DNA of 7,586 bases from Escherichia coli. Lineage in GTDB: Bacteria; Pseudomonadota; Gammaproteobacteria; Enterobacterales; Enterobacteriaceae. The notes beneath the pieces were generated by a model. The model saw nothing but the letters and a program-made list of their open reading frames with translations, had not been told where the DNA came from and ran no database searches. Below, in pieces: positions 3,180 through 6,154 of the stretch. The DNA is taken from assembly GCF_003334815.1 (NCBI RefSeq), contig NZ_QOWO01000067.1; one strand, given 5' to 3'. How positions within the stretch are numbered: position 1 is the first letter of the stretch; each line of letters starts with the position of its first letter. The position numbers and the translations under genes were made by a program.

Positions 3180-3959
3180 TTATGGAATTCTTTTGAGCAT
3201 AGACACCGCATCGGACTCAGGCATCGAAAACTGCACCCGGTGCCGTGCAGCCACATCCAGTGCAAACACCTTCGTGTAGACCTCCGTTGAGCTGATGGAC
3301 TTATGCCCCATCAGGCTCTGCAGGACCTTCAGCGGTATACCGGCATACAGCATATGCATCGCATAGGAATGGCGGAACGTATGTGGCGTGACCGGGACAG
3401 AGAACGTCACACCGTCAGCGGCAGCGGCGGCAACCGCCTCCCCAATCCAGGTCCTGACCGTTCTGTCCGTCACTTCCCATATCCGCGCTTTCTCTGTCCT
3501 GCCTGTTCGTTTATTACGCCGTTCCATGGGGATTTTCAGTGTGGCCACCATCGTCTGCAGCTGGCTGACGTACCAGGCGTCGGAGAGCGGAACCAGCCGG
3601 TGAGTCTGCTGACCGGCGGGCATTCTTCCTGCCGTCCTGGCGGCTTTTTCCGTCCGTTGTTTCAGGGTCGCAAGCTGCACAAACGGATACGGAGGCGTGA
3701 GCGAAAAATCCCCCCGCGTCAGCGCCAGTGCTTCATTAATGCGCGCACCGGTGTTCCACAGTGTGGCCAGCAGCATCTTGCGGCGCAGATCCGGGACGTA
3801 ATGGAGCAGGGCGCTCACTTCAGGGGCCAGCAGGTATTTGGGCAGTTCATCATGAACCATCGACATCTGGCGGAGTGCCAGCGCTGCCGGATAATCGATG
3901 GCAACAGGAAGCTGAGCGGCATCCCGGGCATGGTGGATCGGTGCCGGCAGGTGCTGCAT
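3180..3959 (-). CDS. Tyrosine site-specific recombinase (plasmid resolvase/integrase family, ResD-like)
   Basis: The C-terminal region carries the tyrosine-recombinase box II signature HTFRHSYAMHML...LMGHKSISSTEVYTKV (His-x-x-Arg, then His, then the catalytic Tyr), and an ARINEAL-type box I arginine sits earlier. Start placed at ATG 3959..3957 (M52 of track ORF 3180..4112), 1 nt after the stop of the upstream ORF, giving 259 aa. Overall it resembles plasmid multimer-resolution recombinases of F-like/I-like plasmids, as recalled from memory, not searched. Confidence 0.85.
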   Translation of the reverse strand: MQHLPAPIHHARDAAQLPVAIDYPAALALRQMSMVHDELPKYLLAPEVSALLHYVPDLRRKMLLATLWNTGARINEALALTRGDFSLTPPYPFVQLATLKQRTEKAARTAGRMPAGQQTHRLVPLSDAWYVSQLQTMVATLKIPMERRNKRTGRTEKARIWEVTDRTVRTWIGEAVAAAAADGVTFSVPVTPHTFRHSYAMHMLYAGIPLKVLQSLMGHKSISSTEVYTKVFALDVAARHRVQFSMPESDAVSMLKRIP

Positions 3960-3960
3960 A

Positions 3961-4374
3961 TCAGTGTTCACTCCACGGGGAAACGTCGGGCAGGTTTTCC
4001 ACAACCCTGTATTTTCCCGGATAACGGAGCTGGTTACCGCCACGCGTCCGGACGGTGACAACAAAACCCCCGCCCTGGTTGTTTTCGGGGAGCAGGCGAT
4101 CGCACTGCTCACTCAGCATGTGGATCACAAACGGCGCATCGCTGCCGTCTTCAAATATCAGTTCCAGCGCATCGCGGCCATCCAGCGTTCCCTTACTGAT
4201 GATGACGTACTCAGCCCCCCGCATCTCCCTGAGTAAATGTTTTGCCGCATCCGGGACAAGCAGCCTGGCTTCGCCGGCATTCCAGCTGAGGTAGACATAT
4301 CCGGCCTGCGCCTGTACAGACTGCCAGTAATCCGTTCTGGCGACAGCCTGACCTTCATTCTCAATAAAAAACAT
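3961..4374 (-). CDS. Hypothetical 137-aa protein, first gene of the recombinase operon
   Basis: Track ORF 3961..4413. I start it at ATG 4374..4372 (MFFIENEGQAV...) because of a strong AAGGAG 8 nt upstream. The stop TGA at 3963..3961 is separated by 1 nt from the recombinase ATG (TGATATG). No recognisable catalytic motif or membrane segments; family not recognised. Confidence 0.6.
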   Translation of the reverse strand: MFFIENEGQAVARTDYWQSVQAQAGYVYLSWNAGEARLLVPDAAKHLLREMRGAEYVIISKGTLDGRDALELIFEDGSDAPFVIHMLSEQCDRLLPENNQGGGFVVTVRTRGGNQLRYPGKYRVVENLPDVSPWSEH

Positions 4375-4410
4375 GGGTGACTCCTTTTTTCTTTTCCGGG
4401 CAGGGACGGT

Positions 4411-4495
4411 CATGCGATAACGTCATCCATCATCACTGCCCTTACCGTCACTCCGTCTGATAACATCATGCCGTTATCATCATCACCATGATAAC
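4411..4495. repeat. GATAAC/CATG repeat cluster, candidate recombination site or operator for the adjacent recombinase operon
   Basis: GATAAC at 4416..4421, 4459..4464 and 4490..4495, inverted GTTATC at 4473..4478, and CATCATCAC twice (about 4429..4436 and 4479..4486). Three GATAAC copies abut CATG. Lies 40 to 120 bp upstream of the operon start at 4374. Confidence 0.35.
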
Positions 4496-4811
4496 AAGCA
4501 TCCATATAACCACGCCGTTAAATTACCGGAGAGCCGTTTCCGTCAGATCCGACTTTTCGGAATATCACAACTTTCCGGAAGTGTACCACGCTGAGGAAAT
4601 AATCATATCGCTGTTTTCCGCCCCTGCGCGGCGCATCACAGGTCAGGGAGATGACACAACATATAGTGTCATCAGCAGCTGAATCCGGCACCACATGTTG
4701 TGCTGACGGGAGGTGGCGTTGTGTGGGGGGAGAAGAAGATCCGTAACCGCCGGAAACCGGATCTGCGCGGCGGGAAACGGGCAAGTGATATGGTAATTGA
4801 GCAATACACAC

Positions 4812-4867
4812 AAAATCATATCAGATATGATTTTCATCATTGATGATAGAACCATATCTGATATTAT
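4812..4867. promoter_or_regulatory. Palindromic operator array and candidate sigma70 promoter for the + strand operon starting at 4943
   Basis: Perfect 23-bp palindrome AAAATCATATC-A-GATATGATTTT (4812..4834); 13-bp palindrome TCATCA-T-TGATGA (4834..4846); 11-bp palindrome ATATC-T-GATAT (4854..4864). Candidate -35 TTGATG (4840..4845) and -10 TATTAT (4862..4867) with a 16-bp spacer overlap the palindromes. Confidence 0.45.
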
Positions 4868-4942
4868 AAGAAATCAGGAGCACACAAATCATACAGGATA
4901 TTATTTTTACCTGTCAGAACATTATCAGATGGAGCGTGCAGG

Positions 4943-5197
4943 ATGGATGAAGAAAGGGTGTTTTCACTCAGCTATGAGCAACTAACCCGAATAGCGGAAA
5001 AAAATATCCGTGAATGTGGGCTGGACAACCAGAGCGCCAGGTGTATCAGTGAACTGAAGGCCTCAGCTCTGCTGTGGTTGTGGTATGAACTGGCCATTCA
5101 TGGTGCGCCACAGAACAATCACGCACAGGCCCGGGAACGCATCGATACCGATTATCAGCGCCTCAAAAAACTCATCTGGTCGGAGGGTGACAGTTAA
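4943..5197 (+). CDS. Hypothetical 84-aa protein, first gene of a two-gene operon
   Basis: ATG at 4943 with GGAG about 10 nt upstream. The stop TAA (5195..5197) overlaps the next ATG (TAATG). No transmembrane segment; family not recognised. The + strand is preferred over the long antisense ORF (5063..5803, -), whose translation is an Arg/Pro/Ala-rich artefact typical of the reverse strand of a GC-rich gene. Confidence 0.55.
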   Translation: MDEERVFSLSYEQLTRIAEKNIRECGLDNQSARCISELKASALLWLWYELAIHGAPQNNHAQARERIDTDYQRLKKLIWSEGDS

Positions 5198-5787
5198 TGA
5201 CTCAGAGCCGCCGACCGTCGCCACTGCAGCGGAGAGTGCTGATTGTGCTGGCTGCGCTTGATGAAAAACGGCCGGGCCCCGTGCTGACGCGGGACCTGGA
5301 ACGGGTGCTGGAGCGAAGCGGGGAAGCCCCGGTCTACGGGCCAAACCTGCGCGCCTCCTGCCGTCGTCTGGAGGATGCCGGCTGGCTGCGTACCCTGCGC
5401 GCCCCGAACCTGCAGCTGGCAGTGGAGCTGACGGACGCCGGCCGGGCCGTGGCACAGCCTCTGCTGCTGGCAGAACAGGACCGCCTCCGGGCAGAACAGC
5501 GTGCGGCAGAAGTCGTCGTACTGCCGCTGGTCCCGGCAGCAGGTCTGCCCGCAGACGGCACTTCTGCCACTGATCTGGCGGTGGAGCTGAACGGCATAAC
5601 GTATCAGGCCTGCCGCGGGGATTTTGTGGTGCGTCTCGACGGCAGCACCTGTCTGCAGTTATGGAATAAAGAAGGCAGGGTGGTACGCCGGGAGGGCGAT
5701 CCGCTGGAAGTGGCGCAGTGGCTGCAGGCCTGTCATGACGCAGGAATAGAGGTTCGCGTACAGATAAATGAAAGTGCCGCTCCGTAA
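5197..5787 (+). CDS. Hypothetical 196-aa protein, possible winged-helix DNA-binding N-terminal domain
   Basis: ATG at 5197 overlaps the upstream stop. The N-terminal ~90 aa (LQRRVLIVLAALDEKRPGPVLTRDLERVLERSG...) has the hydrophobic/charged periodicity of a winged-helix domain (inference). The C-terminal ~100 aa is unrecognised. Markedly GC-rich compared with the rest of the window. Confidence 0.55.
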   Translation: MTQSRRPSPLQRRVLIVLAALDEKRPGPVLTRDLERVLERSGEAPVYGPNLRASCRRLEDAGWLRTLRAPNLQLAVELTDAGRAVAQPLLLAEQDRLRAEQRAAEVVVLPLVPAAGLPADGTSATDLAVELNGITYQACRGDFVVRLDGSTCLQLWNKEGRVVRREGDPLEVAQWLQACHDAGIEVRVQINESAAP

Positions 5788-5806
5788 GAACACGCCTGTG
5801 CACGGT

Positions 5807-6154
5807 TTACACATCATCCCATGGTGGCAGCCGGTTAACTTTCCTGCGCCACCAGTGGAAAGAGGCCATGCACAGTCCGAACAAAAAACCACCCGTGATA
5901 CTTATAATAATGGCCTCACCTGCCACCATTCCTGACGGCCCCCAGTAGGTAAACCACATTACACATCCCCAGGAAATGCCCCATAAGCCCCCCGTCAGCA
6001 CCGTGACCTGCCAGAACGGCATAAAGGGTAATGGCGGAAGCCGGATACCCAGCCGCCATAGAATACGCAGAAGAGGAGGGGCATAATTGCTCCGCCACAT
6101 CTTTTTGCTGTCCATCAGGGCAATGGCCCGGGCTTTTTTCTGCTCAAAGGTCAC
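5807..6154 (-). CDS. Small inner-membrane protein (two predicted transmembrane helices), function unknown
   Basis: 115-aa ORF with a GTG start at 6154..6152, preceded by GGAGG at 7-nt spacing. Two hydrophobic segments (VTVLTGGLWGISWGCVMWFTYW and MVAGEAIIISITGGFLFGLCMASFHWW) and a positively charged C-terminus. Convergent with the 196-aa gene (19-bp gap between stops). Confidence 0.55.
   Translation of the reverse strand: MTFEQKKARAIALMDSKKMWRSNYAPPLLRILWRLGIRLPPLPFMPFWQVTVLTGGLWGISWGCVMWFTYWGPSGMVAGEAIIISITGGFLFGLCMASFHWWRRKVNRLPPWDDV

Follow-up and report, generated by a model that had tools for sequence, protein, structure and literature searches.

A widespread plasmid gene pair, ydfA-ydeA, read as a probably self-repressing winged-helix module

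Gene content and coding status of the locus

The window, i.e., the whole stretch of 7,586 nt that was analysed, shows 100% identity to the E. coli IncI-gamma/K1 conjugative plasmid NZ_CP024481.1. Its minus strand carries, in window order, ParM with its partner, ParA, a ResD-like tyrosine recombinase and a 137-aa hypothetical gene. This block is followed by a 530-nt intergenic region and the plus-strand genes ydfA and ydeA, after which come a convergent DUF6404 gene, the colicin Ia immunity gene and the 3' end of the colicin Ia gene. Respective features are listed in Table 1. An earlier note on this DNA treated ydfA and ydeA as nameless; names do exist and stem from the R64/ColIb-P9 nomenclature (PMC3438092, PMC12111858).

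Table 1. Features of the ydfA-ydeA region in window coordinates; palindrome centres are given relative to the inferred transcription start near 4874.
Feature	Position	Strand	Basis and remarks
Conserved 5' module edge, recurrent recombination junction	4749-4811	+	strongly conserved in six-locus alignment A3
O1, operator-like palindrome AAAATCATATCAGATATGATTTT	4812-4834	.	perfect 11/11 inverted repeat, centre ~ -51
Sigma-70-like promoter, TTGATG, 16 nt, TATTAT	4840-4867	+	consensus scan; TG at -15/-14 (extended -10)
O2, operator-like palindrome AACCATATCTGATATTAT	4850-4867	.	overlaps spacer and -10 hexamer, centre ~ -15
O3, operator-like palindrome AAATCATACAGGATATTATTTT	4886-4907	.	inside the 5' leader, centre ~ +22
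ydfA	4943-5197	+	84-aa ORF; named YdfA in UniRef (P0174)
Antisense ORF, not a gene	5063-5803	-	246 aa; longest ORF over the interval
Coupling junction	5182-5199	+	GGAGGG Shine-Dalgarno inside ydfA, then TAATG stop/start overlap; read from sequence
ydeA	5197-5787	+	196-aa ORF, two-domain putative DNA-binding protein; named YdeA in UniRef and AFDB
YdeA winged helix-turn-helix, residues 9-78	5221-5430	+	AlphaFold2 model; helix 48-60 is the likely recognition helix
YdeA long helix, residues 80-104	5434-5508	+	secondary structure in model; candidate dimerisation element
YdeA linker, residues 105-126		+	AlphaFold2 model; variable, low pLDDT
YdeA beta-rich domain, residues 127-190	5575-5766	+	five strands, helix, strand; no close solved relative
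DUF6404 gene (ybaA in pS88 nomenclature)	5807-6154	-	next gene after ydeA, convergent

Within 3180-4413 of the window, on the minus strand, the recombinase ORF mechanically yields 310 aa from a GTG, compared to 259 aa (780 nt) in RefSeq. The RefSeq recombinase abuts the 137-aa hypothetical gene upstream, which is without a family match. The rest of the divergent intergenic region (4414-4748) contains short direct repeats of the GCCGTTA and ATAACATCAT types as well as a 27-nt imperfect palindrome at 4655-4702. Both the 137-aa/ResD operon promoter and an rfsF-type resolution site may be located in this part.

The coding status of both plus-strand ORFs was assessed by comparing the window with five homologous loci of about 70-95% identity, in all of which both ORFs are intact. 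Compared to diverged homologues, substitutions are distributed over the three plus-strand codon positions as 37/33/90 for ydeA and 18/17/25 for ydfA. The dN/dS values over informative pairs range from 0.1 to 0.57 for ydeA/ydfA (ydfA 0.25-0.49), where the near-identical pair L005/L006 was left out of the range because it shows too few differences. That is, the plus frame is under purifying selection and, according to the codon-position patterns, ydfA and ydeA are real coding genes.

The longest ORF over the interval is nevertheless found on the opposite strand. If this antisense ORF were the real gene, the plus-strand ORFs would be incidental, a possibility that the earlier note had named as fatal to its own reading. 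We tested it and give it virtually no credence. Third positions of the plus frame are second codon positions of the antisense ORF, such that nearly every substitution would change its amino acid; since most substitutions hit this second position, the ORF is not conserved as a protein. Comparably long stop-free antisense runs are present in all homologues, as expected at 60-65% GC, and searches of NCBIfam, PADLOC and PHROG provided no family match for it. The high GC content of the DNA accounts for this ORF, which is an artefact.

The two genes are tightly joined. The ydfA stop codon TAA (5195-5197) overlaps the ydeA start codon ATG (5197-5199), and GGAGGG is positioned 9 nt before the latter. 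A stop/start overlap, either TAATG or the 4-nt ATGA, is kept in 8 diverged loci. Together with the codon-position pattern, this bears out the real, translationally coupled two-gene unit proposed in the earlier note.

The GC content rises from 50.8% in ydfA to 65.6% in ydeA (GC1 0.80), with the colicin immunity gene at 33%. The step between ydfA and ydeA is seen in 8/8 enterobacterial loci examined, and the standalone ydeA of a distant locus (L010) has likewise 69% GC. The step is thus ancient and common to the pair rather than a mosaic joint that arose recently on one plasmid. The GC jump had been taken to indicate a mosaic or horizontally acquired cassette. The portable cassette holds, based on a recurrent left junction discussed below, but the jump itself is conserved in every pair-bearing locus.

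Just 19 nt separate the stop codons of ydeA and the DUF6404 gene, and no terminator-like site or hairpin was found 3' of ydeA in the window. Given this spacing, the convergent orientation and the absence of such a hairpin, the two transcripts should collide or overlap. For plasmid pS88, both ydfA and ydeA transcripts were detected by qRT-PCR; in serum and urine, ybaA went up 3-9 fold and ydeA/ydfA down to 0.2-0.7 fold, with p-values that were not significant (PMC3438092). An assignment of the DUF6404 neighbour to the "ibfA" of ColIb-P9 was dropped, since the coordinates of NC_002122 put ibfA elsewhere.

The YdeA and YdfA proteins

An alignment-based AlphaFold2 model of YdeA (pLDDT 87.4) divides the protein into four parts (Table 1). 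In the N-terminal part, three helices and a beta wing precede a further helix, which gives it a MarR/PadR-like fold. The winged-helix-like N-terminus and the unrecognised C-terminal domain that had been described from the sequence thus agree with residues 9-78 and 127-190 of the model.

Profile searches of Pfam, NCBIfam and PADLOC gave no significant match for either protein, in accordance with the earlier statement that neither belongs to a named, characterised family. For YdeA, this includes the MarR, PadR and HxlR regulator models of Pfam and NCBIfam; Pfam reported only AbiEi_4 (E 0.073) and PaaX (E 0.18). No WYL or other known sensor domain was detected in YdeA by Pfam or fold search. PDB sequence searches with the YdeA C-terminal domain and with YdfA returned nothing below E 0.27. 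A fold search of AFDB50 with YdeA matched only uncharacterised YdeA-family proteins, and the relatives named by organism are all from Enterobacterales. For YdfA, PHROG and PDB are likewise without a match, and a profile search provided no annotated relative.

With 221 clusters at 50% identity, the YdeA family is small, and it falls into three length classes, namely a common two-domain unit of about 195 aa, long forms of 390-428 aa and variants of 169 aa. The long forms bear an extra, unassigned C-terminal extension; those of L002 (5261-7661) and L004 (4984-6216) have 410-417 aa with an extension of about 215 aa. The abundant 169-aa variants carry an in-frame deletion that removes the C-terminal half of the long helix together with the linker. 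This deletion spans residues ~90-116 (window ~5464-5544); the respective cluster P0120 is found on at least 1000 contigs, and locus L015 also has a 169-aa variant. Variants of ydeA with a frameshift or truncation are also common among the database proteins, e.g., P0084 on 91 contigs.

YdfA is small and acidic and, judged from its sequence, looks helical. FSLSYEQ.T near the N-terminus, W47 and D70..RL..LI are invariant, and the protein is found only in Enterobacterales. When the window is compared with ColIb-P9 (L006) and a ColBM plasmid (L005), ydfA shows a dN of 0.30-0.33 vs. 0.006-0.008 for ydeA, and the YdfA variants P0140 and P0149 are chimeras of two YdfA types. The ColIb-P9/ColBM comparison thus reveals a recent exchange inside ydfA. 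YdfA would be a lineage-specific partner of YdeA.

Operator-like palindromes and proposed autoregulation

The earlier note placed a palindromic array upstream of ydfA, which we find resolved into three related palindromes (O1-O3, Table 1). Their centres are 36 and 37 nt apart, and the sites lie over the TTGATG-16-TATTAT promoter of the putative regulator itself. For the homologous operon of pUA1135, BProm predicted a promoter 103 bp and a start site 69 bp upstream of ydfA (PMC12111858), and the promoter listed here coincides with it in position.

O1 matches the motif AATCAT-N7-ATGATT exactly, the half-site centres of which are 13 bp apart, and its half-sites are invariant in A3. O3 has 1 mismatch to the motif, with AAATCA and ATT.TT invariant in the same alignment. 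O2 is 89% complementary to O1 and shows an invariant core ATAT.T.ATAT; it differs from O1/O3, such that its conservation may reflect the -10 element alone. When allowing for at most 1 mismatch, the motif has 2 occurrences here and none elsewhere in 100 kb of the host plasmid (mean of shuffles 0.07). The 183 nt 5' of ydfA show 72% identity between loci with near-saturated synonymous sites (dS 0.6-1.5), with no variation in the half-sites AATCA(T) and (A)TGATT among the compared loci. An Rfam search of the window provided a single match, namely the animal microRNA mir-463 at 4816-4868 with 30.6 bits vs. a gathering score of 70, which was rejected as an artefact of the O1-O2 palindromes.

Similar sites accompany distant homologues of ydeA. 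In L010 (48% identity, beside a Rep3 replication gene), ydfA is lacking and the upstream DNA is not alignable with the window; here, AATCAGTATTGATATGATT is located at -58, and six ATGATT hexamers are found within 200 nt vs. 0.2-0.3 expected. In L021 (55% identity, no ydfA), two sites 36 nt apart are located directly 5' of ydeA and are the sole matches in 8.6 kb. The exact O1 19-mer with a second site 36 nt off occurs in L024 (50% identity), where an unrelated small ORF precedes ydeA. Upstream of the most distant homologues, namely L007, L009 and L023 with 31-49% identity, we see no clear operator. Searches for ydfA in the distant ydeA loci by tblastn or HMM found nothing significant, and L007, L009, L010, L021 and L023 are all without ydfA. 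Since L010, L021 and L024 keep the sites without ydfA, operator and spacing are inherited with ydeA, and ydfA is dispensable and lineage-specific.

Overlapping small upstream ORFs of 88 and 82 aa, without significant similarity to YdfA, are present in L022 (3742-4008) and L024 (3756-4004), respectively; the one of L022 reaches only a marginal match to YdfA (E ~0.4-0.5). The position of a small partner may thus be conserved even where its sequence is not.

We consider it probable (about 0.6) that ydfA-ydeA is a self-contained, negatively autoregulated cassette in which YdeA represses its own promoter. Whereas the analyses above show that both genes are coding, that YdeA has a winged-helix fold, how operators and promoter are arranged and that the operator is inherited along with ydeA, we infer DNA binding, repression and dimerisation by YdeA as well as all roles of YdfA and of the C-terminal domain. 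YdeA would dimerise via its long helix 80-104, like other MarR/PadR-type proteins, and the dimer would bind the three AATCAT-N7-ATGATT-type palindromes that bracket or overlap the promoter of its own operon. Bound at the -10 region and the leader, it would block RNA polymerase, such that ydfA-ydeA, plus any gene read onward from the same promoter, would be held at a low set level. The beta-rich C-terminal domain would provide a second function; it may link dimers bound to adjacent operators, which are spaced by 36 nt, or act as receiver for a signal or partner. YdfA, made in fixed proportion via translational coupling, could modulate YdeA as co-repressor or anti-repressor. No functional study of ydfA-ydeA and no experiment on YdeA binding or its effect on expression was found in the searched literature.

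A palindromic, probably autoregulated promoter in front of two small coupled genes is also what a toxin-antitoxin or abortive-infection pair would present. Here, a harmful protein would be neutralised by its DNA-binding partner, which would also repress the operon, an arrangement known from reverse-order systems such as higBA and mqsRA. The plasmid site among stability genes and the weak AbiEi_4 match on the YdeA winged helix fit this view. However, neither protein matches a toxin or antitoxin model of Pfam, NCBIfam or PADLOC, and there is no AbiEii-type partner. Furthermore, ydeA stands alone in five of the distant loci, i.e., the genes are not obligately linked. Standalone and commonly truncated ydeA as well as the missing toxin signature weaken this reading, which we regard as improbable.

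Distribution, neighbourhood and comparison with known systems

DNA matches to ydfA-ydeA are found in at least 5000 of the 72,556 PLSDB plasmids, with Escherichia, Klebsiella, Salmonella, Enterobacter, Citrobacter and relatives as hosts. The survey of joint conservation proposed in the earlier note finds most of both genes together in at least 2609 PLSDB records, with varied neighbours. Replicons among the fetched loci include IncI, IncF and IncHI2. Thus, the location between a recombinase and a colicin module, which the earlier note considered typical, applies to this window but is one context among many.

In the Klebsiella loci L003 and L004, similarity to the window begins at 4749 and 4758, respectively, with unrelated DNA to the left, where Klebsiella IncF plasmids have ParDE or HEPN genes. 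ColIb-P9 aligns with the window to either side of ~4745-4758 but carries about 3.5 kb of extra DNA at this point (L006, 3076-6627), including a DUF4238 gene. This left boundary of the module (~4745-4758) is a recurrent recombination junction, and the pair behaves as a portable cassette. On the right, the pair is followed by the convergent DUF6404 gene with colicin Ia/Ib genes, by ibfA-proQ, by hypothetical genes and hha, or, in L002, by a DpdC-like gene and a thermonuclease gene after a long-form ydeA. On the latter, a Citrobacter plasmid, the DpdC-like DUF6884 protein has a PADLOC E-value of 2.5e-43, and stops and starts of long-form ydeA, this gene and the thermonuclease-family gene overlap.

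The variable neighbourhood bears on a role in plasmid maintenance. YdeA, bound to the repeats, would then serve partition or the resolution of multimers by ResD/rfsF, with the sites functioning like a centromere or as an accessory element. This is the way in which TubR, ParR and the accessory proteins that assist site-specific recombination act. The putative binding sites of the module are iterated as well, and the pair adjoins resD, parA and parM in IncI and ColBM plasmids. This neighbourhood is not conserved, which weakens the idea: in IncF and IncHI2 plasmids the pair is located away from any recombinase or partition NTPase, and 3.5 kb lie between the pair and resD in ColIb-P9. Given in addition that the sites overlap a promoter, we judge such a role to be very unlikely.

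The same neighbours suggest an extension of the autoregulation model rather than a contradiction to it. That is, the module might also control adjacent genes as a switch of defence islands or other cargo, with the C-terminal domain or YdfA sensing phage infection or plasmid entry and thereby relieving repression. Defence-type genes recur next to the pair: L018, which represents the R64-type layout, has IbfA (HEC-04 / ATPase-Toprim) downstream and PDC-S06 upstream; DUF4238 is found in ColIb-P9 and L004; HEPN is found in L004; and L002 contributes the DpdC-like and thermonuclease genes. In an R64-like plasmid, ydfA-ydeA-ibfA-proQ were linked on one transcript by RT-PCR, and complementation with the whole operon resulted in an EOP of 0.01 vs. 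0.05 with ibfA alone (PMC12111858). The lack of a terminator-like site after ydeA in the window is in accordance with such read-through. On the other hand, a separate ibfA promoter was predicted (PMC12111858), and the window offers no co-directional gene 3' of the pair but only the closely spaced convergent one. There is no operator copy elsewhere on the host plasmid and no known sensor domain in YdeA. The neighbour association derives from about 13 hand-picked loci, and several of the neighbours have no PADLOC match. We therefore consider this extension possible but tentative.

A bolder version appears still less likely to us. Here, YdeA would found a family of gatekeepers that control the variable regions (defence, bacteriocin) on resistance plasmids of enterobacteria. 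An attack by phages or the entry of a plasmid would be sensed by the C-terminal domain together with YdfA, the latter in the role of anti-repressor, and adjacent cargo such as IbfA would then be turned on; the edge near 4749 would be a preferred joint for swapping cargo. The earlier note had listed regulation, anti-restriction and exclusion among the candidate roles; only regulation has sequence support.

The autoregulation model leaves the retention of so simple a module on thousands of plasmids without explanation. The pair is already named and very widespread; the findings are best explained if YdeA is a winged-helix regulator that represses itself and carries an unassigned second domain, with YdfA as a small partner. 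This reading provides a testable assignment, with defined putative operators, for what is widely annotated as two hypothetical proteins. The pair rides on IncI1, IncF and IncHI2 backbones that spread antibiotic resistance, and the reading helps to interpret the operon bearing the IbfA phage-defence gene in R64-like plasmids. Better annotation is what is gained if the module acts on itself alone, whereas control of neighbouring cargo would make it relevant to how plasmids keep costly defence genes in check. The identity is also a safeguard against name-based mis-annotation, given that ydeA of the chromosome encodes an unrelated sugar exporter. A GWAS of IncK2 plasmids discusses a plasmid gene named ydeA as the chromosomal MFS L-arabinose exporter (PMC12987596); should this gene be the ydeA of the present module, its functional interpretation would stem from a confusion of names.

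Among known systems, small winged-helix proteins of viruses and plasmids such as F-93 (SSV1/STIV) and TubR are without a C-terminal domain, which YdeA has. TubR works with the GTPase TubZ, and no such partner exists at ydfA-ydeA; a conserved partition NTPase neighbour, as for TubR or ParR, was not found across 13 ydeA contexts. With regard to AbiE, the AbiEi_4 match of YdeA is below significance (see above) and no nucleotidyltransferase gene is adjacent.

BrxR/CapW are WYL-domain regulators heading phage-defence systems. YdeA resembles them in that an N-terminal winged helix is followed by a small beta-rich domain and in that its gene is found at the edge of variable, often defence-carrying regions, including co-transcription with ibfA in R64-like plasmids (PMC12111858). 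It differs in being much shorter and in lacking a WYL domain by Pfam or fold search. Furthermore, ydeA is not consistently located 5' of a defence system: it is in the R64-like layout of L018, whereas a convergent gene follows in this window.

Compared to the autorepressors of the MarR/HxlR/PadR type, YdeA lacks membership in the respective sequence profiles and has an extra beta-rich C-terminal domain of 65 residues on a flexible linker. The module is further set apart from these by its three operator-like sites at 36-37 nt spacing and, in enterobacterial plasmids, by the coupled small partner gene upstream of ydeA.
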